Source of the DNA: Candidatus Woesearchaeota archaeon
GTDB taxonomy: Archaea > Nanobdellota > Nanobdellia > Woesearchaeales > JAGVYU01
Reading direction: 5' to 3'
DNA length: 64,000 nt
Assembly: GCA_043805595.1 (NCBI GenBank)
Contig: JAZDHV010000006.1
Span: forward strand, 11,724-75,723
In this document: positions 14 to 61,556 of the stretch, piece after piece
Layout: each line of letters begins with the position of its first letter
How positions within the stretch are numbered: position 1 is the first letter of the stretch
Position numbers and translations under genes: made by a program
The notes under the pieces: generated by a model
Databases searched by the model: none
Told to the model about the DNA's origin: nothing
Seen by the model: the letters and a program-made list of their open reading frames with translations, nothing else

Positions 14-856
14 ATGACGAGAAAGCCGATTGTTGCAGGGCAGTTCTACCCAGCCAATAAAAATGAGCTAATGAAACAGATCAAAGACAGTTTTAATTCT
101 GAATTCGGCCCTGGAAATGCCTCTCAAGGAAAAATTGAGAAAGTGAAAGCAGTCATCAACCCTCATGCAGGATACTTTTTCTCAGGAGCAGGAGCTGCAC
201 ATGGATTCAAAAGGATAAAAGAAGGCGGTGTTCCAGATGTTTTTGTCATTATTGGATTAAGCCATAATATCCCAAAAAGCGGAATCTCTCTTGAAGATTG
301 GGAGACACCTCTTGGTGTAGCAGAGAATGATAATGAACTAGGTGAAATCATAATTAGAAATACTGGACTTGAGCAAGATGAACATCTGCACATGATGGAG
401 CACTCACTTGAAGTACAGGTCCCATTTATACAGTTTATCTCAAAAAAGGCAAAGATAGTGCCTATAATCGCTTCTGAAGATTTTGATTACAAAAAATTAG
501 GCGAGGGAATCAAAAAGAGTATCAAAGAATATGATAAGAAAGTTGTTGTTGTCGCTTCAAGTGATTTTACACACTATGGAGCCAATTATGGTTTTGTCCC
601 TTTTTCTGGTAATGTGAAAGAGAATATGAAAAAATTAGACAAGGGAGCAATTGAATTTATACTTAAAAAGGATGCAAAGGGATTTCTAAAATATGTTGAG
701 AAGACTGGTGCAACAATATGCGGAAGATGGCCGATTGCAGTATTGCTTTCTGCTGTTGATTGCGACAAGGTTGAGCTTTTGAGATATTACACTTCTGGCG
801 ACATTGTCGGAGATTATGAGAGTGCAGTAGGATATGCGAGCATAGTATTTTATTGA
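14..856 (+). CDS. MEMO1-family protein (AmmeMemoRadiSam system protein B-like)
   Basis: 280 aa; N-terminal AGQFYP, HAGYFFSGAGAA and SSDFTHYG motifs typical of Memo/UPF0103 proteins. Confidence 0.8.
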   Translation: MTRKPIVAGQFYPANKNELMKQIKDSFNSEFGPGNASQGKIEKVKAVINPHAGYFFSGAGAAHGFKRIKEGGVPDVFVIIGLSHNIPKSGISLEDWETPLGVAENDNELGEIIIRNTGLEQDEHLHMMEHSLEVQVPFIQFISKKAKIVPIIASEDFDYKKLGEGIKKSIKEYDKKVVVVASSDFTHYGANYGFVPFSGNVKENMKKLDKGAIEFILKKDAKGFLKYVEKTGATICGRWPIAVLLSAVDCDKVELLRYYTSGDIVGDYESAVGYASIVFY

Positions 857-1194
857 GGCAGATAATGAAAGGGAGAAAGATAAGGTTAAATGAAAAGATT
901 GGAGAAATCAAACATTGCAAAAGCATATTTTCAAAAGCAATTGGATTGATGTTCTCTTTTCCTAGAGACAGGGCTTTAGTGTTTCATTTCAACAAGGAGA
1001 AATTAGTTGATTTGCATATGTTCTTTGTTTTCTATCCAATTGATGTATTTTATCTTGATGCTGGGAAGAAGGTCACTTCAGTCAAAAACAATTTTATACA
1101 GTTCACAGTGACATGGCCAAGGAAGGCAAAATATGTGATTGAGGCAAAGAAAGGGTTATTGGACATTAAGATAGGGGATGTTGTAGAGTTCTGA
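853..1194 (+). CDS. DUF192 (COG1430) family protein
   Basis: 113 aa; GLMF...ALVFHF...HMFFVFYPIDVFYLD pattern resembles DUF192; 4-nt overlap with upstream gene. Confidence 0.55.
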   Translation: MRQIMKGRKIRLNEKIGEIKHCKSIFSKAIGLMFSFPRDRALVFHFNKEKLVDLHMFFVFYPIDVFYLDAGKKVTSVKNNFIQFTVTWPRKAKYVIEAKKGLLDIKIGDVVEF

Positions 1195-1250
1195 TTATTG
1201 AATATCAATTATTATTGAATATCAACTATTATTGAATATCAATTGTTATT
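1193..1250. repeat. Tandem repeat, 19-bp unit (attattgaatatcaaYtR) x3
   Basis: Seen directly between convergent genes 853..1194 (+) and 1229..1699 (-). Confidence 0.75.
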
Positions 1251-1699
1251 GCTCCAGAATAATAAGCAATAGCAGTGCAACTACCAACAAATGCTGCCAA
1301 GGCTACAGCTGTTAAACCTCCTTTAATCAAAGTTGATGAGACTGGATGCCTTAAACACCATAATTGATAGTCTGAATAATGAAGCTGTTGATTTACTAAT
1401 TGTCTCAACTCAGGATCTTCATTCCCAACATAAATCTCTTCTAATCCACTTCTTGCTGCAGATCTTTCATATTCAGGATATCTTGGAACCATTCTTAACT
1501 CTTGGACATCTTCAAAACCATCTGACCAGCCAGTAGTCCTATATCCAAGGTCCCTGCGCTCTCCTGTATCTACTAATCTTTTTACTTGATCATTTAATGT
1601 TTTTCCAAATCTTGCTATTAAATCATGCACAGCATCAGTACTAATAGTAGAGTCCATACTTAAGGAGAATACGCTTGAATCTAAAGAACCACCAGTCAT
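1229..1699 (-). CDS. Hypothetical protein with C-terminal TM segment
   Basis: 156 aa ORF; hydrophobic C-terminus GGLTAVALAAFVGSCTAIAYY; start codon lies inside palindrome P1 of repeat copy A. Confidence 0.4.
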   Translation of the reverse strand: MTGGSLDSSVFSLSMDSTISTDAVHDLIARFGKTLNDQVKRLVDTGERRDLGYRTTGWSDGFEDVQELRMVPRYPEYERSAARSGLEEIYVGNEDPELRQLVNQQLHYSDYQLWCLRHPVSSTLIKGGLTAVALAAFVGSCTAIAYYSGAITIDIQ

Positions 1700-1846
1700 A
1701 GACTGGTGGGATTCAATAATTCCACGTCCATTACATCTAAGGACTGGTGGTTCTTAGTGCTCAGGAATTTTTCACTCCTGAAAGCTAAATCAATCAAAGA
1801 TTGCCACCAGCCATAGACTGGGTGGAAAATTCCTGACATTTTAAAG
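1681..1846 (+). repeat. Palindrome-rich repeat element, copy A (~165 bp)
   Basis: Starts ctaaagaaccaccagtcatagactggtgg; contains CCACCAGTC-ATA-GACTGGTGG (1689-1709), half-site GACTGGTGG (1742-1750), degenerate second palindrome (1804-1825) and inverted pair TCAGGAATTTT/AAAATTCCTGA; near-identical to 61392-61556. Confidence 0.85.
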
Positions 1847-1952
1847 TTAATCCCAAAACAGCAGAAACCTCAAAAAAGGTTCCTAAGATTTGAAATATTA
1901 AAAAAAATTTCCCAAAACATTTAAATATCGACTTAAATTCTGATATTCTATC

Positions 1953-2108
1953 GGGGCTGTAGTATAATCTGGCTAGTATAGCGGCCTCCAGTGATGGAGG
2001 GATGAGCCATTTCGGCGATGAATAATCTTTCTGCTGAAGACAGCCGTGGATCTGGGTTCAAATTTGCCAAAAGAACATTATTTTGGCATGAAAATCCCAG
2101 CAGCCCCA
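1953..2108 (+). tRNA. Candidate tRNA-Trp(CCA) with two introns (canonical 37/38 intron ~50 nt; second ~32-nt intron in T-loop region)
   Basis: Acceptor GGGGCTG (1953-1959) pairs with CAGCCCC (2101-2107) plus discriminator A; D-arm with GG; anticodon stem GCGGC/GCCGT around loop CU-CCA-G; T-arm CTGGG-TTCAAAT...CCCAG split by hairpin-forming insert (GCCAAAA/TTTTGGC); first intron carries C/D-box-like motifs (GTGATGG, CGATGAA, CTGA); T-run follows. Confidence 0.5.
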
Positions 2109-2119
2109 TTTTATCTTTC

Positions 2120-2576
2120 CTAAAGAACCACCAGTCATAGACTGGTGGGATTCAATAAATCCGTAAATACCTTATGATAGAACTGGTGGTTCTTAGTGCT
2201 CAGAATGCTCAGAAATCTTTTTAAAAAATTTCTGGCATGCCAAAAATGCTCTGCATTTTTGTGCATTTTCCAGCTTATGCAGGCAGAATCATGCAAAGCT
2301 TGCCGCCAGTCAGAGACTGGATGGAAATGCTCAGAAAAGCTTTGCTTTTCTGGCACACTTAGAAATGCTAAATGCATTTCTTGTGCCCAAAAAACACAAA
2401 GTGTTTTTTAGGGTGTTAAAAATCTGAAAGATTTTTATACAATTCTGACATTTTAATAAAATTTCTGGCATGCCAAAAATGCTTTTCATTTTTGAGCATT
2501 TTTCTGATTCCAATATTGGGACTGGCTTTCGGCCACCAGTTAAAAACTGGTGGAAAATTTCTGACATTTAAAAAAG
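2120..2576 (+). repeat. Degenerate, internally re-duplicated copy of the palindrome-rich element (copy B mosaic)
   Basis: Begins with same ctaaagaaccaccagtcatagactggtgg (palindrome 2128-2148); half-site 2181-2189; degenerate GCCGCCAGTC-AGA-GACTGGATGG 2302-2324; variant CCACCAGTT-AAA-AACTGGTGG 2533-2553; aatttctggcatgccaaaaatgct unit occurs twice (about 2228 and 2458). Confidence 0.75.
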
Positions 2577-3392
2577 ATGGCACAAACAATAATCAGGAGA
2601 GCTAGAAGAGCAAATGACTTAGTTAGTCCAAGGTTTCTGACACAAGTGCCTCAGCGTGATTATATTCTAGAAGGGATCTCAGAACTAGTCAGGATCACAA
2701 CTGAGACCGGCTATGAAGCGGATTTTGATGTCTACAAAAGAGCAAGAACAGAAAAACTTCATATTTCAAAATACATCACTATTGGTGATGAAAATTCAGT
2801 AAGCCTGATATCAGGACTAAACAGGCTATCCTGGGAATATATTGAAAAAATAGGAAAAGACCCTCGATACAAAAGCAATCAAGATGATTTTGAAAGGTTT
2901 GTCAGAAATCATGAGATTGGATTTCAATCACCTATGCCAAAACAAGGCGAAATACCTTATGAAGAATTTGACAGAAGGACAGATTATGCATTATTATCTG
3001 TCCACTCACACCCAGGTGGAGCTGCGCATGCTTCAAGAGAAGACCTGCTTCATCTGAACAATATTAGAAGAATAGATTTTAAAAGAAGGTTAATGAGCAA
3101 CCCAATCAGCATGGTCATTGGAGTATATCAAGACAGCACCAAGACTCATGATGAAGATGAACTGGTAAGAATAATATTCGGCACTGAGCAGTCAGGTGAA
3201 ATAATGCTGTTCCAAGAGAAAAGCGAATGGCCTCATTCAATAAAAACAATAAAAAGGGCTGCGAAGTCATATCTATCTGAAACAGCAGAACAATCTAAAA
3301 AATCATACAATATTGCGAGAGGGCAATATCATGCTGATGAAAAAATGATTGAGGTTCCAGCAGGCTTGCTTGAATTTGGGTTTAGATTCTAA
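2577..3392 (+). CDS. JAB/MPN (JAMM) metallopeptidase-domain protein
   Basis: 271 aa; exact JAMM signature H-S-H-x7-S-x2-D in LSVHSHPGGAAHASRED with upstream Glu. Confidence 0.6.
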   Translation: MAQTIIRRARRANDLVSPRFLTQVPQRDYILEGISELVRITTETGYEADFDVYKRARTEKLHISKYITIGDENSVSLISGLNRLSWEYIEKIGKDPRYKSNQDDFERFVRNHEIGFQSPMPKQGEIPYEEFDRRTDYALLSVHSHPGGAAHASREDLLHLNNIRRIDFKRRLMSNPISMVIGVYQDSTKTHDEDELVRIIFGTEQSGEIMLFQEKSEWPHSIKTIKRAAKSYLSETAEQSKKSYNIARGQYHADEKMIEVPAGLLEFGFRF

Positions 3393-3433
3393 ATATATTT
3401 ATTATTTCCATAATTAATCCAATATAGGATAAT

Positions 3434-4519
3434 TTATTCTATTTTTTTAGCAAAGCCTTGTTTTGTGTCTATAAGAACAAGATCATTGTCTTTCAGAACT
3501 TTTGTAGCAAACTTTGTGCCTATCAAAGCAGGTATCTTGTATTCTCTGCTAAGAATAGCTGCATGGCATGTAACTCCACCTTCATCAGTTATTATTGCTC
3601 CTGCTTTTTTTAGATTTGGAGTTATTAAATCAGTTGTAGTCATCTGAGTAACTAAAACATCACCTTGATTTATCTTGTTCATATCTTCCCTTGTTTTAAT
3701 ATGCTTGACTATTCCCTGATATCTTGCGTCAAAAGTACCTTGGCCTTTTAACTCAGAACTATACACTTCATTTTCAAGATAATGAAGTATTAAAGAGGCA
3801 TTCTCATGCATTGAATACTGTCCATTAGCAAGAATAAAAACACACTTTTGCCTTTCTCTGACTTTTTTGTCAATATCAATTTTATATCCCTTGATAACTT
3901 GTTCAACCTCTTTAGGTGTTAAGAATTTAAGATCATTCACTGTAATTTTTAGCCTATTGGCAATTTCCTTAAACAGAGGCTCTGCTATTTCATGTGTTTC
4001 ATTAAATTTAGATCTTCCTAAAAGCCGCATATTAGCCATAATGTCAACAACTTCTTTTACAAAAATGCTTTTATCATCTTCTATACCTCTTGAGTCTACA
4101 CTGATCAGAAATGTTGGGTAAGCCTGCTTATAGAGAAAGAAATATTTCTTTATTAAGTGAAGCAATTCGATTCTGCTCCTTTTATTCAGGTTTTTAAGGC
4201 TATTGGAGAATTCTATTAAATCACCAAATTTCTCTTTTCCTTCCTCAAGAATCTTATGCATGAAATAATGATCCTGTTCGAGATTATTTTTAATGAATTT
4301 GTCAAGTTCTGAAGAGATTTCATTTCTCCAGAAATGAGAATAAGACATCCCATCCCTTATGGTCAGATAATCTGGATGTTTAATTCCAAATCTTTCTACA
4401 AATTCATTTGTCATTGCTTCATAAACTAAGCAATTCTTCAAGAAATCATTCTTTCTTTCTGCAATTAATTCCCATTTCATTTTAATCAGCAATTTCTGTG
4501 AAAGAATATATTGGAACAA
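3434..4519 (-). CDS. PEP-utilizing enzyme mobile (swivel phosphohistidine) domain protein; PEP synthase / rifampin phosphotransferase-like C-terminal half without ATP-grasp domain
   Basis: 361 aa; C-terminal GGVTCHAAILSREYKIPALIGT matches the conserved phosphohistidine swivel motif. Confidence 0.7.
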   Translation of the reverse strand: MFQYILSQKLLIKMKWELIAERKNDFLKNCLVYEAMTNEFVERFGIKHPDYLTIRDGMSYSHFWRNEISSELDKFIKNNLEQDHYFMHKILEEGKEKFGDLIEFSNSLKNLNKRSRIELLHLIKKYFFLYKQAYPTFLISVDSRGIEDDKSIFVKEVVDIMANMRLLGRSKFNETHEIAEPLFKEIANRLKITVNDLKFLTPKEVEQVIKGYKIDIDKKVRERQKCVFILANGQYSMHENASLILHYLENEVYSSELKGQGTFDARYQGIVKHIKTREDMNKINQGDVLVTQMTTTDLITPNLKKAGAIITDEGGVTCHAAILSREYKIPALIGTKFATKVLKDNDLVLIDTKQGFAKKIE

Positions 4520-5237
4520 CTCCTTTTGAGACTAAATCATCAATATTTGCTTGATTAACCTTATTATGGCGGTCAACTAAATATAAGCTTGGATTCACTC
4601 CAGCTGATTGAAATCCTTGATAGGCTGCATATAAAACAGATGGCTTATCGTCATAGAAAGCCTTAATATCCCTGTCTAATAAAGCTGGGACTCTTGCAAA
4701 AGTCTCTGGGTCATTCTTATCGCCAATCTCTTCTCCAACAAGAAGACCATCATATTGGCAAGTGTTTCCGATTAATAATTCAATTAATTCAATTGAACCT
4801 GATGTTAATAAGTAAACAAGATTTCCTTGTCCTCTGACAAGATTAAATCTTGGAGCGACATCATCATATACTATTTCAGAGGGATCTACTTCTAGTTCTC
4901 CTGCCTTTATAGCCTCGACCCAAGCATAATTCAATAAATTAAAGTCATCCTGAGAAATATTCCCTCTTGTCCTATGGAATTCTCTTATTCTCTCTAAAGC
5001 TTCTGGATCAGTTATATACTTTCCAGCAAGTTCACTAGCAATAAAATCATATCCTTGTCTGAATGGGCCTGTTATGACTCTTCCTACATCATATAGCTCG
5101 ATTCTTGGTTCTTGAGATTCAGATCCTTTTGTTGGATTTTGGTCTACTCTTTGTTCCAAATCTTGCTCTTCATCTCGTTCTCCTTTATCCTCATGTTCTT
5201 CTCTGTCGCCTGTTTGCTCTTCTTCCATTGTCATCAC
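4482..5237 (-). CDS. Hypothetical acidic protein, co-operonic with PEP-utilizer gene (38-nt overlap)
   Basis: 251 aa ORF with Glu/Asp-rich N-terminus; no recognised domain. Confidence 0.4.
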   Translation of the reverse strand: MMTMEEEQTGDREEHEDKGERDEEQDLEQRVDQNPTKGSESQEPRIELYDVGRVITGPFRQGYDFIASELAGKYITDPEALERIREFHRTRGNISQDDFNLLNYAWVEAIKAGELEVDPSEIVYDDVAPRFNLVRGQGNLVYLLTSGSIELIELLIGNTCQYDGLLVGEEIGDKNDPETFARVPALLDRDIKAFYDDKPSVLYAAYQGFQSAGVNPSLYLVDRHNKVNQANIDDLVSKGVVPIYSFTEIAD

Positions 5238-5355
5238 CTAATTAGTTGTCATAACTAAGTTTTCTATGCATTAGAAGTGAATATTGAGTATATTAATATT
5301 TGTTGTAATCATAATGACAACAATGTTTATATACTTGTTAATATTCCAATTAGAT

Positions 5356-6075
5356 ATGATCACAGAAATATTAGGAGAAATTGGATTAAGTGGAACAGAA
5401 GCTAAAGTTTATGTAGCTTTGCTGGAATTAGGATCAGCTTTAGCTGGAGAAATTACTAAAAAGTCTGAAGTGAATAGGACAAATGTTTATGATGCATTGG
5501 AAAGACTAATAAAAAAAGGTCTTGTTACATATGTGATAAGTGCCAACAGAAAAGTGTTTGAGCCTATAAAACCAGAAAGGATAAAAGAAATTCTTAAGGA
5601 AAAAGAAGAAAAGGTTAACTCAATAATGGAAGAATTGAATACTAAGTACATTACAAGCAAAACAAAAGAGCAAGCAACAATATTTAAAGGAAAGATGGGA
5701 ATTAAGTTAATTTTTGAAGATATTCTTAAAGAAGGCAAAATACTTTATGCATATGGAGCTGAAAGCAGATTTGCAGATAACTTTCCATCATACTTTAAAA
5801 TATGGAACAAGAGAAGGGCTAAACTAGGGATTAAAGTAAAGATGCTCTATAATGAAAAAGTAAGGAAAATAAAATTAACAGAGGGATTTAGATTATTAAC
5901 AATGAAATTCCTTCCAAAACAATATGAATTTCCTTCAACAATCCTTATCTATAATGATAAGGTTGTAACAATTGCATGGTCAGATATTCCATTTGGATTT
6001 ATGATTGAAAGCAAAGAAGCTGTAAGAAGCCAGATGAGTTTCTTTCATATTTTATGGAAGACTGCAAAAGAGTAG
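5356..6075 (+). CDS. TrmB-family transcriptional regulator
   Basis: N-terminal wHTH LSGTEAKVYVALLELGSALAGEITKKSEVNRTNVYDALERLIKKGLV typical of TrmB; start taken at internal Met MITEILGEIGL (ORF track begins at 5284). Confidence 0.75.
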   Translation: MITEILGEIGLSGTEAKVYVALLELGSALAGEITKKSEVNRTNVYDALERLIKKGLVTYVISANRKVFEPIKPERIKEILKEKEEKVNSIMEELNTKYITSKTKEQATIFKGKMGIKLIFEDILKEGKILYAYGAESRFADNFPSYFKIWNKRRAKLGIKVKMLYNEKVRKIKLTEGFRLLTMKFLPKQYEFPSTILIYNDKVVTIAWSDIPFGFMIESKEAVRSQMSFFHILWKTAKE

Positions 6076-6171
6076 AAAAGATTATTCTTTTACTATCAGA
6101 ATATCTTTGGTTCTACCAACCCCACAAATCATCATAAAGAAATTAAAGAAAGTGAAGTTTTATTAATTCCT

Positions 6172-6657
6172 CTAATCTCTCTTCATCAATTCCTCTAATT
6201 TCCCAAATTGTTTAGCATACAATGGTAAAACTTCCTCTGTTGAATGGATTTGAGTCATCTTAGGAATTCTCCAGAAACTATCTTCTCCATAAGCATGTTG
6301 TTCTGTAACTTGCAAAGGCTTTGCAGGTTTTCTACTGAGAAATCTTTTTGGTTTAAAATGAGTAGCTAATTCAACTTGGATTTCTCTTGGATAAAGCAGA
6401 AAATCAGTAGACATTTCCCTTCTTGGATCAGTATTTAGAGATTCCATCCTTATTTCACCAGATCTGAATGCATCCACATAGAATAACCACTCTAATTTAT
6501 GATCAAAGCTTTCTTCCAGCAAATAGTTCCTTGGACCATCCCACTGCTTTAAACCAATTGCCCTTAAACCATTTCTATCAAGGTCTGCATATTTTACAGT
6601 TTGCCCTGCTAATATTTCCCTCACAGCATCAATTACTTCTCTATCATTTGTGTACAT
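6172..6657 (-). CDS. Hypothetical protein
   Basis: 161 aa ORF between the two TrmB paralogs, opposite strand; no recognised motif. Confidence 0.4.
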   Translation of the reverse strand: MYTNDREVIDAVREILAGQTVKYADLDRNGLRAIGLKQWDGPRNYLLEESFDHKLEWLFYVDAFRSGEIRMESLNTDPRREMSTDFLLYPREIQVELATHFKPKRFLSRKPAKPLQVTEQHAYGEDSFWRIPKMTQIHSTEEVLPLYAKQFGKLEELMKRD

Positions 6658-6721
6658 TTTATTTTCCTCCTACATGTTTATTTGTAACACATTAGTAACT
6701 ACACATAGTATACTTAAGTTT

Positions 6722-6746
6722 TTGTTGTAATATTATATTACAACAA
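6722..6746. promoter_or_regulatory. Perfect 25-bp palindrome TTGTTGTAATAT-T-ATATTACAACAA in divergent promoter region (candidate TrmB operator)
   Basis: Seen directly, ~40 bp upstream of TrmB paralog start (6785); related TTGTTGT-N10-ACAACAA at 5300-5326 upstream of the other TrmB paralog. Confidence 0.4.
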
Positions 6747-6784
6747 TAATAAAATTTAAATACTGGAAAACAACTGCACTCTGT

Positions 6785-7528
6785 ATGAATCCAAAATTAA
6801 TACTTGAAAACGCAGGATTGGCAGGAAATGAAGTAAAAATCTATCTTGATCTTCTTGGTCTAGGATCTGCTTTGGCAGGAGAAATCACAAAAAAGTCAGG
6901 TATTAATAGGACAAATGTCTATGATGCTTTGGAAAGACTTATAGAAAAAGGCCTTGTCAGCTATGTTATAAAAACAAATAGAAAATATTTTGAAGCTGCT
7001 GAGCCAACTAGAATCACTAAGTTCCTGTCTGAAAAACAGGAAGAGATAGAACAAAAAAAGAAATTAGTAAATTCAATACTTCCTGAATTAAAGGCTAAAA
7101 GAATGCTAAGTAAAGAGCCTCAAGAAGCGACAATTTTTAAAGGCAGGAAAGGAATAAAATCAGTGGCTGAAGATGTCATAAAGACGAAAAAAGAATTACT
7201 TGTTTTTGGAGCAGAAGGCAAGTTTGTAGATTTATTCACACACTATGCAAGGCAATGGCATTTGAAAAGAAAAGAAAACAGAATTCCATTAAAAATTCTT
7301 TTTAATGAAAAAATTAGAAAAAAGAAATCCAAAGAAAAGTTTCCTATCTGTCAAATGCGATATAGCTCAAATATACAAGAGACTCCAGCAACAACATGGA
7401 TCTATGGTGACAAGGTAGCGATAATGGTTTGGGGAGAGCAGCCAATTGCCACTTTGATAAGAAGCAAAGAGGTAGCAAAATCATATAAAGTAAATTTTGA
7501 TCTTTTGTGGGATTTGGCCAAAAAATGA
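6785..7528 (+). CDS. TrmB-family transcriptional regulator (paralog of 5356..6075)
   Basis: N-terminal EVKIYLDLLGLGSALAGEITKKSGINRTNVYDALERLIEKGLV is near-identical to the HTH of the upstream paralog. Confidence 0.75.
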   Translation: MNPKLILENAGLAGNEVKIYLDLLGLGSALAGEITKKSGINRTNVYDALERLIEKGLVSYVIKTNRKYFEAAEPTRITKFLSEKQEEIEQKKKLVNSILPELKAKRMLSKEPQEATIFKGRKGIKSVAEDVIKTKKELLVFGAEGKFVDLFTHYARQWHLKRKENRIPLKILFNEKIRKKKSKEKFPICQMRYSSNIQETPATTWIYGDKVAIMVWGEQPIATLIRSKEVAKSYKVNFDLLWDLAKK

Positions 7529-7600
7529 TAGTTAATAAATATTCAATTGCAAATAATTAGAAACTTGATTAAAGAAACTTGTTTATAATTAATAATAAAG

Positions 7601-7608
7601 TTTATATA
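7601..7608 (+). promoter_or_regulatory. TATA-box-like TTTATATA ~25 bp upstream of transporter start
   Basis: Position and sequence fit archaeal TATA element for a leaderless transcript; inference only. Confidence 0.3.
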
Positions 7609-7630
7609 ATTATTATATGAGGAAAAGAAT

Positions 7631-8791
7631 ATGAAAAAAGAGGTGTGGGAGGCAGCTGCGACATTAGTCGGAGCAACAATCGGCGCAGGAGTCTTGGGAA
7701 TCCCTTATGTGATTGCAAAAGCAGGGTTTATTGTAGGCCTCGTGGATATCTTGATCATAGGTTTCTTCATCCTAATGCTTCAGCTCTATATGGGTGAGAT
7801 TGTATTGAGGACAAAAGGAAACCATCAGATAACAGGATTTGCAGAGAAATATATCGGGAAAAAAGGAAAATTTATTGTTGCATCACTTTTCATATTAAGC
7901 ATTTACGGTGCCTTGATTGCCTACCTGATTGCCAGCGGAGAATTATTGTCGACGATATTTGGAGGAAACCCAATATATTATGGATTTGGATTCTTTGTCT
8001 TCTGCAGCACAATAATATATATTGGAATCAAGGCAATCAAAAGATGGGAACTAGGGATATCAATGATCCTTATCGGGATCCTAATACTGATAATAACAGT
8101 ATCCTTCACAAAAATCAATTATTCAAATTTTCACCTAGTTAACTTTAACAATATACTTGTACCATATGGAGTTATCCTATTCTCATTATTTGGCACAGTG
8201 GCAATACCAGAGATGAAAGAAGAGCTCAAGAAGAACAAGAAAGAGCTGAAAAAAGCAATAATAATCGGGACAACTATATCAATACTGATTGCAATAATCT
8301 TCAGCTTTGCTGTATTAGGAGTGGTTGGACTACAGAATTTTGAGAGTCTTGAAACAGACAAAAGAATTGCAACAATAGCACTTGGGCAAATAATGGGGAG
8401 AAATATGCTCATATTTGCAAACTTGTTTGCATTATTTGCAATAACAACAAGCTTTTTAGTATTAGGCTATGGGTTAAAGGAGATGTTCCATTTTGATGAC
8501 CATATTGGATGGAGGCTGTCATGGATCTTCACAATATCTGTACCAATAATTTTTTTCTTCATTGACTCATTTATTGTCGATATCACCAATTTTATCAATA
8601 TAATCGGATTTACAGGAACTTTTGCATTAGGGTTAATAGGAATAATGACTGTCATCATATATATGAAAGCCAAGAAATACGGGGAGAGAAAACCAGAATA
8701 TACAATTGCAAAAAACAGAGTGATAGAATATCTTCTGATTGGGTTGTTTGTTCTTGGAATGGCTTATGAGATTGTTAAAATGTTAATATAA
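7631..8791 (+). CDS. Amino-acid permease-family transporter (Trp/Tyr permease / AAAP-like), ~11 TM
   Basis: 386 aa polytopic membrane protein; N-terminal EAAATLVGATIGAGVLGIPY motif typical of amino acid transporters. Confidence 0.65.
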   Translation: MKKEVWEAAATLVGATIGAGVLGIPYVIAKAGFIVGLVDILIIGFFILMLQLYMGEIVLRTKGNHQITGFAEKYIGKKGKFIVASLFILSIYGALIAYLIASGELLSTIFGGNPIYYGFGFFVFCSTIIYIGIKAIKRWELGISMILIGILILIITVSFTKINYSNFHLVNFNNILVPYGVILFSLFGTVAIPEMKEELKKNKKELKKAIIIGTTISILIAIIFSFAVLGVVGLQNFESLETDKRIATIALGQIMGRNMLIFANLFALFAITTSFLVLGYGLKEMFHFDDHIGWRLSWIFTISVPIIFFFIDSFIVDITNFINIIGFTGTFALGLIGIMTVIIYMKAKKYGERKPEYTIAKNRVIEYLLIGLFVLGMAYEIVKMLI

Positions 8792-8813
8792 GAAAATTAA
8801 TATGAGAATTAGA

Positions 8814-9398
8814 TTATTCCTCTATTCTATGTGTAATTTCAAGGTAAGGCCTATTGCCCCCAATCACCCATAATCTCTCACCAGGCATAAACAAGTCCTT
8901 AGAAAGCAAAAGCCTTCTCTGATTATCCATATGGGATTCACCATAAACATATCCTTTGAAATTAACATAATGTTGATTTACATCAGGAAAAACTAGATTT
9001 CTCTTTAAGATCCTATTTTCACCAATGACACATGTCTTGTATTTTCCCTCGGATTCAGGAAATAGATTGTAATAAGACGGAGGTATGCAAATCCTTCTTC
9101 CTTGATCGACTTTAACACCTTTTTTTATAGGATTTGAAAAGAGGATAGCACTTTCAGGATAATCTTGATTAGATCCTTGATAAGGCAACATAGCTAACAA
9201 TTCCCTAAATTCTATCATTGTAATAGGATCTAAATTGCAATCCAATCCTCTTCCACTTAATAACAGACCATGATCATGAGGAAGGAGCCCTTTTTCAACT
9301 GCTTCAACCACTAATTCAGGTGTAATTGAAAAATAATCAGCTAAATCATCTAGATCAAACATAATACCAAGTCTTCTTGCTGTACTCTTTGTTGTCAT
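8814..9398 (-). CDS. Hypothetical protein
   Basis: Start taken at internal Met (MTTKSTARRL) to avoid overlap with the 3' end of the giant gene; no recognised domain. Confidence 0.4.
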   Translation of the reverse strand: MTTKSTARRLGIMFDLDDLADYFSITPELVVEAVEKGLLPHDHGLLLSGRGLDCNLDPITMIEFRELLAMLPYQGSNQDYPESAILFSNPIKKGVKVDQGRRICIPPSYYNLFPESEGKYKTCVIGENRILKRNLVFPDVNQHYVNFKGYVYGESHMDNQRRLLLSKDLFMPGERLWVIGGNRPYLEITHRIEE

Positions 9399-9447
9399 GA
9401 TAAATCGAAGTATAAATTGATTTAAAAATGTTACGGTTAAGTAGTAA

Positions 9448-12400
9448 CTATTTCTTAGAATTCTTATCTTTTTTAGAAGATTTATTATCTTTTTCTTTTT
9501 CCTTTTTATTATTATTCTCATCCAAAAAATCAAGGATCTTGTCATTATATTTTACAAACAATATGATGATAAAAACAATGACTAAGCCTGCAATAATATA
9601 ATTGAGATAATCAATGAAAAAAGAGGCTGGTTTGCTTATAATCAAACTGGCACTTTCCTTAATCTTGCCTAAAAAATCATTCAAATCCTCTTTAATTTTC
9701 TCTGAAATAGGAACATCAGGAGCTTTCTTTACAATAAGGAGCACTTCATTGCTCTCAACAACACCTCCCTTGCCATCATCAGCTGTAAATACCACTGTTT
9801 CAGCACCACTAAATCCTGGGTCATGGATTAACTTAGCTATACCAAGTTCATTGTCAATATCAATATTTATATGATCTGTAGACTCAGCTGAATAAACAAG
9901 CTTATCACCATCAGGATCAATGAAATATTGAGAAAGATCTAAGGATCTATTCTCATCAAAATTCCAGACCTGGATGGGAATACCTTTTTCATCAATAATA
10001 GTCTTATTAACAGATAAAATCCTGATCAGATTGTTCAATTCATTGACAGACAGTCGTGTCTTAACAATAATATCAACCATATTCTTTATCAACAAATCAG
10101 CGAACTCATCGTTAGAAAGGATTGCGTTGGATTCAGTGTTGACAACCTTGCCTTCAGCATTATACTTATAACGGCCATCTGATATTGAGCTGAGGATCTC
10201 ATCAGTCCTAAACTCCTCAATTGTTGTAGTGGGTTTCTCAGGTATTGTGACCAATGTTGTTACAATCATCGTTGTTGATGTTATCTCAGCTGAACTCAAT
10301 GCTGTCTCTGCAGTTGGAGTAATCAAAGAAGAGATTGTGTCATAATTATAATAAACCAAGCTGACAATAACAGCTATTATCACTAAAATAAGCAGATATA
10401 TTGGCCATTGGAGATCATCCTCCTTTTTAGGCTTTTTCTCCCTGATTATCTTTTCTTTTGGTTTTTCAGTTATCTTTTTTGGAGCAACAATGACTGTCTT
10501 TTCAACAGGCTTTTCTATTTTTTTTAATTCAATAATAGGCTTTTTCTCCAAAATAACAGGTTTCTCCCTCATCAGACCAGCAATTGCATAATAGCTAAAA
10601 TCAGGAAGTTTTGTCTCAAAATAAAGGAATGAATCATCCTCATCAATGATCTTAGTAGAAATATCAATCCATTGGCGCTTTTCATACCTCTTTATAATAA
10701 TTGATTTTGGATCAATATCTTGATACACAATCCATGATTTCTTAACCCTGAACCTCAGAAGGACATTTGAAAGGTTGTTTTCACTTATATTTTTTGCATC
10801 TATCTCAAAATACCTATAAACATGAGGGGAAGGCCTGATGAAAGTAGGCTTTTTTTTCAAACCTTTGATAGAGATTGATGCATTGCTAATCCTGCTCCTG
10901 ATCCTAAATGATATCTCACCAATACCAATCTTCTCATTCACTGGGATTGTGACATCATCACCAACTGAATATGTTGAGAGTGATTTTTCAAAATAATATG
11001 CACTACTCCTCCTTTTAACATATGAGCGTATAATAATCAAAATAATGACAATTAAAATGCCAATAATAATGTAAGTGAGATTATTCATCAAAAAAAGCAA
11101 GATAAAATTTATTATGCTCCATGCACCAAAAAAGATTGATTTAACAATTCCATATAAAAAACTTAGAATGTTGAGTATTCCAATCTTCTTATGGATATAA
11201 TAAATCAAGGCAATCAATATTGCAAGAAGCACAAGCAAAAACAATAAGGCAGGCCAGATTTTTGGCTCAACAATCTCAGGACCTATCTGCATCTTTTCAT
11301 CTTTTTTTACCTGCTTTTCAACCAGTTTTTTAGGTTCAATATTTTGACCTTTCTTTATTTCCGCTTTTATTGTCTCATCTTTCCTGATCTCATCTTTTTT
11401 TTCTGGTATTACTGGCTTTTCTTTTTTTGGCCACTTTGAAATAAAAGATATTACCTTAATCAGAATTATCAAAAGAACCAGGACAATGATTCCAGCAATG
11501 ATATAGGGGAAATAATCATTAATCATGGTTCTAACAGGTGTTATCACATTGTTGAGTGAGCCTGATAATGTCTGCAAAAATCCTATATTTTCTCCAGATA
11601 AAGTTGTTGATGTTGTTAAAGGCCCACTAGTAGTTGTGACATCTACTAATGATGATGTTGTAGTCTCAATCAAAGTGGTTGTTGTTTCAGCCAAAGTTGT
11701 TGTCTCTACAATCTCTATTGCAGTGGTTGCTGTAACATTTTCATAAGGCAAGAATGGCAACATATTCATGTAATAAAAAGCAGTGACAATTATTGCAATC
11801 AAGATAATCAAGAATACAGGCCAAACAGGAGGTCTTTTCTTTTCCTCTTTTGTATCCTTTAACACTAATTTTTTAACAGGCCCTGCCTTGGCTCTCTTTA
11901 ATGGCTTTTTCTCAACATTTTTTATCAATTCTTTTCTCTTTTTCTCTTGTTCTATTCTCTTTTTCTCCTTTTCTAATCTTTTCTTTTCCCTATTCTTTTT
12001 ATTGAGCTCTTTTTTCCTTGCCCTTTTCACTCTCCATTTGCTGTATCTAACTCTTATTTTTCCAGATGTTTTCCTTGAGAATCTAAGAAGTGGTCTTCTA
12101 AAAATTAGAATTATGATGATTAGTAACAATAAGGTAATTCCTGCCAAGAAAAACCATTTATACAATAAGACAAAATTATAAGCTGATTTAAAGTATCCAA
12201 AAATAGTATCCTTTAATGTACCTATAACACCCTTAATTTTCTCATACAATATCCCAATCTTGGATGTGAGAGGGGGTTCAATTGCAGCCACTTCTGTCGT
12301 TGTCACTTCCTCTACTGTTGCAGCAGTTGTCTCATTTACTGGAACAAACAAAGACTTGAAAAAAGGCGCGATAGGATAAGCCAGAAAGACATAGATCAGG

Positions 12401-25261: not shown

Positions 25262-25330
25262 CTAAAGAACCACCAGTCAGAGACTGGTGGAATTCACTAA
25301 ATCCACAACTGCAATACCTCCATGAAGCAC
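25262..25330 (+). repeat. Truncated copy C of the palindrome-rich element
   Basis: ctaaagaaccaccagtcagagactggtggaattcactaaatcc; palindrome 25270-25290; diverges after ~45 bp. Confidence 0.7.
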
Positions 25331-61391: not shown

Positions 61392-61556
61392 CTAAAGAAC
61401 CACCAGTCATAGACTGGTGGGATTCAATAATTCCACGTCCATTACATCTAAGGACTGGTGGTTCTTAGTGCTCAGGAATTTTTCACTCCTGAAAGCTAAA
61501 TCAATCAAAGATTGCCACCAGTCAGAGACTGGTGGAAAATTCCTGACATTTTAATG
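61392..61556 (+). repeat. Palindrome-rich repeat element, copy D (near-identical to copy A)
   Basis: Identical to 1681-1810 over ~130 bp, then 4 substitutions/1 indel in last palindrome; palindromes 61400-61420 and 61515-61535. Confidence 0.85.

Follow-up and report, generated by a model that had tools for sequence, protein, structure and literature searches.

Repeated palindromes beside an archaeal tRNA gene are hairpin ends of small, transposase-less IS200/IS605 relatives

Results

The repeated palindromes that lie beside a tRNA gene in this archaeal genome are the hairpin ends of small IS200/IS605 relatives that carry no transposase gene, and not the binding sites of a regulator. We describe them in a 64-kb window, by which we mean the whole stretch of DNA analysed here (64,000 nucleotides). 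The element at 2120-2566 and its sister copies are very probably non-autonomous derivatives of an IS200-group insertion sequence (IS) of the IS200/IS605 family, of the kind known as PATEs. On the minus strand, their anatomy reads as target T-AAAA, boundary, TGTCAG(G/A)AATTTT, left hairpin and ~90 nt of interior, followed on the right by AATC, the hairpin CCACCAGTC-N3-GACTGGTGG, TTCTTTAG and the second boundary.

Four copies of the element occur in the window. Matches to CCACCAG-N7-CTGGTGG with at most three mismatches number nine in the window, against 0.83 expected. Copy A (1681-1838, minus strand) is full length, with its right-end hairpin at 1689-1709, a left-end hairpin (1804-1825) damaged by two substitutions and a 1-nt insertion, and the target TTTTAA at 1839-1844. 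Copy C (61392-61548, minus strand) is an intact 157-nt element that is 97% identical to copy A, with hairpins at 61400-61420 and 61515-61535 and the target TTTTAA at 61549-61554. Copy D (25262-25310, minus strand, ending at about 25310) is a solo right-end fragment made up of tail, hairpin (25270-25290) and ~20 nt of interior, and sits between two convergent genes. All four copies share one orientation, which agrees, though weakly, with strand-specific, replication-coupled transposition; the GC skew of the window tracks gene strand and gives no replication direction.

Copy B (2120-2566, minus strand), placed between the tRNA-Trp and JAMM genes, is a mosaic version of the ~157-bp repeat that combines one right end with two left-end modules. 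The minus strand of the window is its transposon "top" strand. The preliminary description had the element start again right after the tRNA, and the alignment bears this out: 2120-2162 matches 1681-1723 at 98% identity, and 2179-2203 matches 1740-1764 at 96%. The right-end tail TTCTTTAG (2120-2127) occurs in every window copy and also in relatives, and the flank past it diverges; its last four nucleotides, TTAG, would be the right cleavage site. Next comes the right-end subterminal hairpin CCACCAGTC-TAT-GACTGGTGG (2128-2148), and an identical hairpin follows tnpA in full IS copies. Directly 5' of the hairpin foot on the active strand lies the putative right guide tetranucleotide AATC (2149-2152), which pairs with TTAG by IS608 mapping and co-varies with the tail across subfamilies. 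An internal segment at 2179-2203 (ACTGGTGGTTCTT) is complementary to the right-end arm and tail (13 nt, 100% complementary) and belongs to a feature that we call the anti-junction.

The remainder of copy B records repeated or nested insertion, as had been suggested. A ~230-bp unit repeated about 1.7 times had been described here. The internal duplication is real, and it is smaller: 59 nt (2218-2276 and 2451-2509, minus strand) at 86% identity with a spacing of 233 nt, each duplicate being followed by a hairpin module at equal offset. All three palindromes reported for copy B were recovered: that at 2128-2148 is perfect, that at 2303-2324 is degenerate, and that at 2533-2553 is a variant with concerted changes in its two arms. 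On the plus strand the degenerate palindrome reads CCGCCAGTCAGAGACTGGATGG; it is a hairpin of the left-end type, and on the active strand CAAGCTT comes next, as it does at the left ends of full IS copies. A run of four small, unrelated hairpin modules, read from the sequence (2325-2440), parts it from the internal terminus to which it belongs; similar small modules are also seen in elements at other loci. That terminus, TGTCAG (minus strand, 2445-2450), abuts a target-like TTAAAA (2451-2456; TTTTAA on the opposite strand) and, at 2445-2456, marks a nested or tandem composite. Copy B most likely originated when one family member inserted into an internal TTAAAA of another and a deletion followed, in that presumed order.

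The outer left end of copy B stops short of the JAMM gene. The left-end subterminal hairpin CCACCAGTT-TTT-AACTGGTGG (2533-2553, minus strand) is a compensated variant that is also found in two relatives (L052 and L079). The 5' segment TGTCAGAAATTTT (2554-2566) includes the putative left guide TTTT (2554-2557), and the target TTTAAA (2567-2572, minus strand) is kept on the left-end flank, outside the element. As noted earlier, the tail ctgaca|tttaaa|aaag reaches the ATG at 2577; the element itself ends at 2566, 10 nt short of that codon. The tail had been read as part of a promoter or operator, and instead consists of the left terminus of the element plus an A/T-rich target sequence. Directly after the target site comes a JAMM/MPN-type gene (2577-3392, plus strand), with a Pfam Prok-JAB match just under the family cut-off (E 3.5e-5) and an HSHPGG...S..D motif.

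A close relative carries the empty site. At precisely the point occupied by copy B, the syntenic locus L079 (83-97% identity) has the tRNA 3' end connected to the JAMM ATG, reading ...TTTTTTC|TTTTAAAAAGATGG with no duplicated target. This agrees with the proposal that copy B is an insertion. Because this is the only occupied/empty pair, it does not separate insertion here from precise excision in the relative, and copy B may have inserted between the tRNA-Trp and JAMM genes or have been lost, precisely, in the relative. Scanning metagenomes with the 3' end of the tRNA gave no match and so no more orthologous sites. A target-site duplication is absent at copy B when compared with L079, and copies A, C and D have no repeated flank. 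A classical MITE, a DDE derivative with terminal inverted repeats and a target duplication, was rejected on the missing duplication at copy B and on the differing ends of the window subtype. Some other subfamilies end in TGTCA...TGACA, unlike the window subtype.

The genes around copies A and B need reinterpretation. The tRNA is real: a tRNA-Trp(CCA) with two introns (1953-2108, plus strand), flanked by the two copies and 97% identical in L079. ARAGORN called it after in silico removal of both introns, and ARAGORN and Rfam missed it on the unedited sequence. A palindrome had been said to span the start codon of the minus-strand gene. An ATG (1699-1697) does lie in the hairpin loop of copy A, but it is missing from the L079 orthologue, where the loop reads TCT. 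The probable true start of this gene (1229-1657, minus strand, without a Pfam match) is the ATG at 1657-1655, which lies 23 nt beyond the right end of copy A and is common to the window and L079. The small open reading frames of the region, whose conservation as coding genes would have refuted the preliminary description, are not conserved: a frameshifting indel separates copies A and C, and they have no Pfam match. An exact-sequence look-up of two window proteins returned no match, and a six-frame search of the 64-kb window found no Y1 transposase.

Variation among the palindromes follows base pairing. Among 77 distinct variant sites of CCACCAGTC-N3-GACTGGTGG, 94 stem pairs were changed compensatingly on both sides, 32 were broken and 6 had become G.T; where a site had two differences, these formed one compensated pair in 26 of 30 cases. 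The variants thus keep arm-to-arm complementarity and not a fixed half-site, which identifies the palindrome as a hairpin and not a dimer operator. To the preliminary description the palindromes looked like operator or promoter sites of a DNA-binding protein; as a rival model, they would be operators of a dimeric regulator at the promoters of the flanking genes. Such a reading could draw on the strong conservation of the palindrome over many lineages, on the TATA-like, A/T-rich sequence that adjoins the window palindrome (the junction GACA|TTTTAAA resembles the tRNA promoter AACATTTAAATA) and on the downstream genes (tRNA-Trp, JAMM) that two of the three full copies face. Against it, the compensated arm changes serve base pairing, with half-sites varying in step; the TATA-like sequence is the transposon target and co-varies with the guide; and the close relative keeps the same genes without copy B.

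Position relative to genes also speaks against a regulatory role. Checked across related loci, the palindromes show no bias towards gene starts, the outcome that the preliminary description had named as refuting its reading: on the left-end side the nearest gene was start-proximal in 18 cases and end-proximal in 31, and on the right-end side in 36 and 40, respectively. The same gene-orientation test gave no support to the idea that the element lands on TATA boxes and so preserves promoters. The only gene family that recurs next to the element is a transposase, and the hairpin is shared with ISs that encode a Y1 transposase. The operator model is already largely refuted, and we regard it as very unlikely.

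Transposase-carrying relatives link the hairpin to the IS200/IS605 family. The hairpin is carried by at least 100 genome loci and at least 110 metagenome loci, ~30% of which have it within 150 nt of a contig end. Record titles place the hosts mostly in Woesearchaeota, Aenigmatarchaeota and Nanoarchaeota; by these titles the hosts are low-GC, DPANN-type archaea. Clustering of open reading frames within 1.2 kb of the palindrome at 100 loci (L001-L100) found no recurrent family and missed the small transposase gene, which was recognised through a conserved C-terminal peptide in metagenome loci. At 16 loci the hairpin starts 6-21 nt past the stop codon of a gene of 133-153 aa, and in two it overlaps the end of the reading frame. 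Six of six proteins tested match Pfam Y1_Tnp (PF01797) at 45-81 bits, with a cut-off of 23. Among solved structures, the TnpA proteins of ISDra2, Sulfolobus and IS608 come closest, and the HUH motif and the catalytic tyrosine align to them.

The full IS has a constant layout: a T(T/A)TAA target, ~11 nt, left hairpin, tnpA, CATG, right hairpin and TTCTTGAC(A). The same full IS occurs in differing flanks in three pairs of loci (L201/L127, L160/L178 and L101/L142), and one full copy lies on a contig from a viral collection. In the window copies, both ends are present and a CAAGCTT-like sequence stands 3' of the left hairpin, as in full IS copies. The loops of the copy B and C hairpins are pyrimidine-rich on the minus strand, as they are on the tnpA-sense strand of the full IS. 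We found no full IS with the right-end subtype of the window (AATC...TTCTTTAG); the full-IS tails displayed were of the TTCTTGAC type or close variants.

These IS copies bear on whether the hairpins could be REP/BIME-like repeats, domesticated by the host, served by a single-copy RAYT and active in, for example, termination or mRNA stability. High-copy extragenic hairpins in variable, modular clusters, a Y1-family protein linked to them and the many copies at gene 3' ends would all suit such repeats. The tnpA gene, however, lies between a left and a right end on one strand, each end with its own guide and cleavage logic, and not between inverted REPs, and the same IS is found in different flanks. 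Moreover, the GTAG/CGTC head is absent, the four nucleotides 5' of the hairpin being CATG, AATC, TTTT or AATT, and in the short copies the left end differs from the right and the target is defined. Host-domesticated repeats are therefore highly improbable, and mobile elements with transposase-encoding kin remain our preferred interpretation. Integron attC sites, considered for taxon overlap, were rejected since the elements occur singly and not in arrays and lack an R-box consensus; copy number and context spoke against ORB (replication origin) boxes.

Guide and target sequences co-vary in the register of IS608. In IS608, the four nucleotides 5' of the hairpin foot pair with the cleavage tetranucleotide (PMC5934647, PMC3201880). 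The right ends of our elements show the guide/tail pairs CATG/TGAC (68 cases), AATC/TTAG (17), GATG/TCAC, CATC/TGAG, CATT/TGAA and CATA/TGAT, and across 142 right ends the pair g1:c2 was Watson-Crick in 124 and g4:c4 in 108, with several pair types. At left ends, the predicted target tetranucleotide was present at the boundary in 90/150, compared with a permuted mean of 31.4 and a maximum of 45 (2000 permutations); examples of guide/target pairs are AATT/TTAA (42/49), TTTT/AAAA (29/32), ATTT/ATAA (10/11) and TGTT/CAAA. Left ends of other copies adjoin a conserved TAAAA or TTAA: in copies with a TTTT guide, TAAAA stands directly before TGTCAG as the commonest preceding 5-mer (20 cases), and in those with an AATT guide, TTAA occurs at a fixed offset in 42/49. 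The rule is broken at one position in 17/142 right ends (CATT/TGAC) and in some others. Discriminating cases are few because guides made of A and T alone (TTTT, AATT) suit almost any pairing scheme. Simple position-wise pairing fits such guides equally well and fails for CATG/TGAC, TGTT/CAAA and ATTT/ATAA; antiparallel pairing was also tried, and the IS608 register, which explains these three pairs, was preferred.

Short elements share an internal anti-junction. This segment of ~25 nt is complementary to the element's own right end plus left end, that is, to its joined ends. It was present in 43 of 56 two-ended short elements, across several sequence subfamilies (in copy C, at 61453-61486), and the right-end half of the pairing was found in none of the 11 full-IS right ends examined. 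With the anti-junction, the single strand would take the shape of two extended hairpins that hold both termini side by side, and the excised circle would equally become a rod. Since it would compete with the right hairpin, and would sequester both the left guide and the right cleavage site, the segment could switch transposition on and off or act as its built-in splint. Such sequestering fits the simple IS608 model awkwardly. The papers on IS200/IS605 elements and PATEs that we consulted do not describe a feature of this kind, and searching the literature for the palindrome string yielded nothing but unrelated primer sequences.

The strong predicted fold raises the question of whether the repeats, with alternative hairpins, are genes for small structured non-coding RNAs or act as cis-regulatory RNA, for example as an attenuator. 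Copy C folds as single-stranded DNA at -36.5 kcal/mol (z -7.95), one arm pairs alternatively with two partners, and the minus strand has a TATA-like sequence upstream and a hairpin with a T-rich tail at its end. Yet Rfam 15 gave no match at gathering thresholds over the window, and permissive hits in 1600-2700 were at chance level. Orientation to neighbouring genes is inconsistent, the architecture is two-fold pseudo-symmetric, and presence or absence between relatives together with transposase linkage accounts for the conservation. We therefore consider an RNA function extremely improbable and retain the transposon-derived origin of the repeats.

Discussion

We suggest that the short copies are moved by a transposase acting in trans, by analogy with IS608 and ISDra2. 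A Y1 HUH TnpA, encoded elsewhere in the genome, would bind both hairpins on single-stranded DNA. The four nucleotides 5' of each hairpin foot would then pair with a cleavage tetranucleotide, which would be the target on the left and the last four nucleotides of the element on the right. The element would leave as a single-stranded circle and integrate on the 3' side of a matching A/T-rich tetranucleotide, leaving the target unduplicated.

Apart from one puzzling feature of their structure, the elements are mobile DNA of an ordinary sort, and they add a member to a known type. By the published definition, a PATE is too short to code, lacks both inverted terminal repeats and target duplication, and has near-terminal palindromes, the distance to which is greater at the 5' end than at the 3' end (PMC3119063). 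The intact element here is 157 nt, the window ends are TGTCAG... and ...TTCTTTAG, and the reading frames are neither conserved nor matched in Pfam. As in the PATEs of Haloquadratum walsbyi and other haloarchaea (PMC3119063), the near-terminal palindromes are related to IS605-type transposons, inverted terminal repeats and target duplications are lacking, a targeting sequence of 4-5 nt stands at the 5' end, the 5' palindrome distance is the longer one, and the mobile elements are often nested. In contrast to the haloarchaeal PATEs, which are mainly kin of IS1341/TnpB-type elements, the kin here are tnpA-only and IS200-type, the hosts are low-GC, DPANN-type archaea by record titles, and a conserved internal segment is complementary to the element's own joined ends.

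Features are also shared with IS608 of Helicobacter pylori and ISDra2 of Deinococcus radiodurans, the paradigms of the IS200/IS605 family. Here too, the linked full copies code for a Y1 HUH transposase, both ends have subterminal hairpins on one strand, and the target is not duplicated. The left cleavage/target site lies outside the element, 5' of the hairpin, and the right site inside it, 3' of the hairpin; the guide register (c1:g2, c2:g1, c3:g3, c4:g4) is that of IS608. Unlike IS608 and ISDra2, the elements here have no tnpB gene, and the window copies carry no transposase gene. End-to-hairpin distances are shorter than in IS608 (left, 12-13 nt against 19; right, 8 nt against 10); targets consist of A and T only (TAAAA, TTTAA, TATAA) rather than TTAC or TTGAT; and the hairpin has a loop of 3 nt on a perfect stem of 9 bp, whereas the palindrome of IS608 and ISDra2 is imperfect with an extrahelical base. 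Likenesses also extend to the REP/BIME and RAYT (TnpA-REP) systems of Proteobacteria, which have abundant extragenic hairpins in modular clusters and a Y1 transposase relative that recognises a hairpin and its flanking tetranucleotide. Here, however, no GTAG/CGTC head is present, the short copies have a defined target and two different ends, and the transposase lies inside a mobile IS instead of being a single domesticated gene between inverted REPs.

The short copies may be more than deletion-fused ends. We raise, as a tentative and rather doubtful proposal, that selection has kept an internal anti-junction that matches the junction of the excised circle. If functional, the anti-junction would give non-autonomous single-strand transposons a novel means of organising their own ends.

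There are also practical consequences for archaeal genomics. These repeats should be masked as mobile DNA in annotation, being a source of spurious reading frames and of N-terminal extensions such as the one from the ATG at 1699. Copies also break assemblies, ~30% of related loci ending at one. The natural variation in guide/target pairs is a ready-made data set for DNA-guided target choice of the kind seen in IS608. The hairpin is conserved across lineages and the target is A/T-rich, and the full copy in the viral collection points to a possible route of spread. Together, the elements are evidence that small, streamlined genomes harbour an IS200-type family, active now or until recently, along with its short derivatives.

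Copies of the repeat in the window

The repeat first seen at 1681 begins anew directly 3' of the tRNA gene, with 98% identity between 2120-2162 and 1681-1723 and 96% identity between 2179-2203 and 1740-1764. The palindrome CCACCAGTC-N3-GACTGGTGG is perfect at 1689, 2128, 25270, 61400, and 61515; the site at 2533 has changes in both arms, and those at 1804 and 2303 are degenerate. With up to three mismatches, the window holds nine matches to this pattern versus 0.83 expected. The copy between tRNA-Trp and the JAMM gene (copy B, 2120-2566) also contains a 59-nt internal duplication (2218-2276 and 2451-2509; 86% identity; spacing 233 nt). Repeat comparison and palindrome search therefore bear out the structure given in the preliminary description, in which the element restarts after the tRNA. 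Copy C (61392-61548) is a near-identical full copy with 97% identity to copy A (1681-1838), and all differences between the two are confined to one hairpin, the left hairpin of copy A. Copy D is an end fragment (25262-~25310).

The palindrome is a hairpin rather than an operator

An exact palindrome scan of one genome per species returned at least 100 loci. By record title, most listed loci belong to Woesearchaeota, Aenigmatarchaeota, Nanoarchaeota, Altiarchaeota, and ‘Methanosarcinales’ MAGs, with a few in an Armatimonadota MAG. A metagenome scan with a longer left-flank version returned 110 loci, many from a single metagenome. The palindrome lies 150 nt or less from a contig end in 30 of the 100 listed genome loci and in 36 of the 110 metagenome loci, as expected because repeats break assemblies. 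It behaves as a widespread multi-copy repeat. The same 21-nt palindrome occurs several times in the bacterial Armatimonadota MAGs SKYB17 and SKYB71 (L004, L018, L067, and L080), which come from another setting and in which the flanks differ (ctaaaaagaccaagcatgct...); the hairpin may have spread across domains, or these MAGs may contain misbinned sequence.

Among 77 distinct sites differing from the consensus at one to four stem positions, 94 stem pairs were changed on both sides and remained complementary, while 32 were broken and 6 were G.T. One compensated pair was present in 26 of 30 two-difference sites, and two such pairs in 26 of 35 four-difference sites. Since a mirror mutation rescues a stem, but not a homodimer operator, the palindrome is a hairpin and not a dimer operator.

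The preliminary description had read the palindromes as operator or promoter sites, and had itself proposed positional bias toward gene starts as the check. We took 97 distinct left ends and 142 right ends and classified, for each, the nearest ORF of at least 100 aa lying no more than 300 nt away. Gene starts were not enriched: left ends gave 18 start-proximal and 31 end-proximal ORFs, and right ends gave 36 and 40, respectively. Together with the compensated stem changes, this argues against operators. At about ten loci, the A/T-rich target on the left-end side overlaps or adjoins the neighbor's stop codon (0-7 nt); many insertions thus lie immediately 3' of genes because the target overlaps or directly follows stop codons.

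The first palindrome of copy A was also thought to span the start codon of a minus-strand gene. The loop ATG (1699) is, however, absent from L079 (JBDROB010000059), a Woesearchaeota MAG that shares synteny with window 149-9902 (83-97% identity); ATG 1657 is the start codon found in both. None of the small ORFs matches a Pfam family, and a frameshift separates their versions in copies A and C. The junction of GACA with TTTTAAA resembles the local tRNA promoter AACATTTAAATA, and an incidental promoter effect may occur at single sites, without defining the element. The annotated ATG of the JAMM gene (2577) lies directly 3' of the TTTAAAAAAG target, both in the window and in the empty site of L079, so that a TATA box would not fit at its usual distance. 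The true start or the promoter of this gene may therefore lie elsewhere; within 2577-2650, an in-frame GTG is present at 2646.

Related elements encode a Y1 transposase

In metagenome copies, a conserved reading frame runs into the palindrome. A gene of 133-153 aa ends 6-21 nt 5' of the hairpin in 16 loci, with overlap in two of these. Six of the encoded proteins were compared with Pfam, and each matches Y1_Tnp (PF01797, ‘Transposase IS200 like’), scoring 45-81 bits (cut-off, 23 bits). Among solved structures, their nearest matches are TnpA of ISDra2, Sulfolobus, and IS608, and the HUH motif and catalytic tyrosine region align. The full element comprises T(T/A)TAA, ~11 nt, a left hairpin, ~100 nt, tnpA, CATG, a right hairpin, and TTCTTGAC(A), the left hairpin often being a compensated variant (e.g., CCACTAGTC...GACTAGTGG). 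The same IS is found in differing flanks (L201/L127, L160/L178, and L101/L142). L101 (IMGVR_UViG_3300009031_000713), a viral-collection contig, carries a full IS (tnpA and right hairpin) at 3189-3677, to which metagenome locus L142 has a near-identical counterpart.

On the minus strand, copy C reads, 3' of TAAAA, TGTCAGGAATTTT, left hairpin, CAATCTTTG..., and closes with ...AATC, right hairpin, TTCTTTAG. Judged by sequence, both its left and its right end match the type seen in the full IS, a likeness that extends to a CAAGCTT-like sequence 3' of the left hairpin.

Copy B comprises a pair of left-end modules and a single right end. Read on the active strand, 3' of the TTTAAA target, it runs through TGTCAGAAATTTT and a hairpin (2553-2533), ~80 nt ending in ...CCAGAAATTTTATTAAAA, TGTCAGAATT (2450-2441), four small unrelated hairpins (2440-2325), ATTT, a degenerate hairpin (2324-2303), CAAGCTT..., the ...GGCATGCCAGAAATTTT.TTAAAA segment a second time, an internal anti-junction, AATC, and a hairpin (2148-2128) to TTCTTTAG. 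The second left terminus lies exactly 3' of an internal TTAAAA, which sits within a small hairpin in the intact relatives L052 and L079. In the simplest reading, one family member would have inserted into another at this internal site, and the remainder would then have been lost as the homologous right halves of the two recombined, an order of events that we infer. Copy B could also have arisen by unequal recombination between tandem copies; nested insertion followed by recombination is the simpler route.

Short hairpin modules of the types CAGAAAxxx-loop-xxxTTTCTG, AAAAACAC...GTGTTTTT, and AAAAATC...GATTTTT are stacked in variable number inside some copies, at window 2325-2440 and in L051, L137, L139, L181, and L187. 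They bring to mind certain small mobile repeats of Haloquadratum whose targets are palindrome-associated transposable elements (PATEs) (PMC3119063).

Guide pairing and an empty site define the boundaries

In IS608, the cleavage sites base-pair with the tetranucleotide that lies 5' of each hairpin foot (GL AAAG/CL TTAC and GR GAAT/CR TCAA, with A+16:T-3 and A+17:T-4) (PMC3201880, PMC5934647). The register c1:g2, c2:g1, c3:g3, c4:g4 fits both IS608 ends. Our right ends show the guide/site pairs CATG/TGAC (68), AATC/TTAG (17, the window subtype), and GATG/TCAC (2), as well as CATC/TGAG, CATT/TGAA, and CATA/TGAT. The g1:c2 pair is Watson-Crick in 124 of 142 right ends; exceptions to the rule include CATT/TGAC (16-17). 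For left ends, the predicted target tetranucleotide is at the boundary in 90 of 150, versus a mean of 31.4 (sd 4.0, maximum 45) over 2000 permutations. The left-end classes are AATT/TTAA (42/49), TTTT/AAAA (29/32), and ATTT/ATAA (10/11), and TGTT/CAAA, TATT/TAAA, and CATA/TGAT are also seen. Because this rule predicts the target there, the ‘tgacattt(t)aaaa tail’ previously taken for part of a promoter is the left terminus plus retained target.

At the site 3' of the tRNA, L079 reads ttttattttttc followed directly by ttttaaaaagATGG, where the window has ttttatctttc, the insert CTAAAGAACC ... TTCTGACA, and then tttaaaaaagATGG. Aligned in this way, copy B is an exact presence/absence difference without target duplication. 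It is bounded as the full IS would predict, by the right-end tail TTCTTTAG at one end and, at the other, by the left terminus TGTCAG adjoining the TTTAAA target. Insertion in the window and precise excision in the relative fit this difference alike. Repeated insertion near the tRNA, as first proposed, is supported by this presence/absence difference and by the two left-end modules of copy B. Copy A has only 65% identity to the element at the orthologous L079 site (6299-6502), versus 97% to copy C; the neighboring gene is 91% identical between window and L079. This pattern is suggestive of re-use of the site or of gene conversion, with copy A decaying afterwards.

Short copies contain an internal anti-junction

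Within the short copies lies a segment whose sequence is the reverse complement of the copy's own right end joined to its left end (copy A, 1742-1775; copy B, 2179-2210; copy C, 61453-61486, GACTGGTGGTTCTTAGTGCTCAGGAATTTTTCAC on the plus strand). We aligned the reverse-complemented 28-nt junction to the interior of each of 56 distinct two-ended short elements, drawn from several subfamilies whose end sequences differ; the median score was 21. Scores of at least 18 were reached in 43/56, versus 1/56 for the same-sense control and 0/56 for the shuffled control. An exact complement of at least 9 nt to the right arm and tail lies upstream in 78/104 short copies, and was found in 0/11 full IS copies and 0/115 flank controls. 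As single-stranded DNA, copy C has a predicted fold of -36.5 kcal/mol (z = -7.95), in which both termini pair with the anti-junction and this long-range helix displaces the right hairpin. The anti-junction may be an end splint, a rod-like circle form, an inactive state, or a by-product of the element's origin.

The tRNA gene and its surroundings

The tRNA named in the preliminary description is real: tRNA-Trp(CCA) (1953-2108) is called by ARAGORN once its introns are removed, although the intact sequence is missed by both ARAGORN and Rfam. The introns comprise 50 nt at position 37/38 and ~32 nt in the T-loop, the latter with an 8-bp TGCCAAAA/TTTTGGCA helix. The gene is 97% conserved in L079, in which ~165 nt (5918-6084) are inserted at its 5' end, flanked by duplicated TATCGGGGCTGTAGTATAA. 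This insert has small A/T-rich hairpins like those at window 2383-2440, and may represent a further mobile element or a scar left by integration at the tRNA. The motif ttctaag(a/c)tttgg...cccaaaaca, located upstream of the tRNA promoter, occurs in one to two copies in the window (1851-1917) and in three copies in L079 (6140-6290). A 17-nt unit (GAATATCAAYTRTTATT) occurs as three tandem repeats at 1200-1251, in the gap that separates the stop codon of the DUF192 gene from the 3' end of the minus-strand gene.

The element belongs to an ordinary class of mobile DNA

A six-frame profile search of the 64-kb window found no Y1 transposase; the window copies are therefore non-autonomous, and any transposase that moves them would have to act in trans. 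We found no specific description of PATEs in this family and host group in the literature. A 2024 survey noted only high MITE density in a Woesearchaeal genome (PMC11602168), and a 2026 survey identified IS200/IS605 as the most widespread archaeal IS family (PMC13343696). The window copies agree with the published definition of PATEs: near-terminal palindromes with the longer palindrome distance at the 5' end, no inverted terminal repeats, no target duplication, and a length too short to code (PMC3119063). The element is an IS200/IS605-derived PATE, an ordinary class of mobile DNA.
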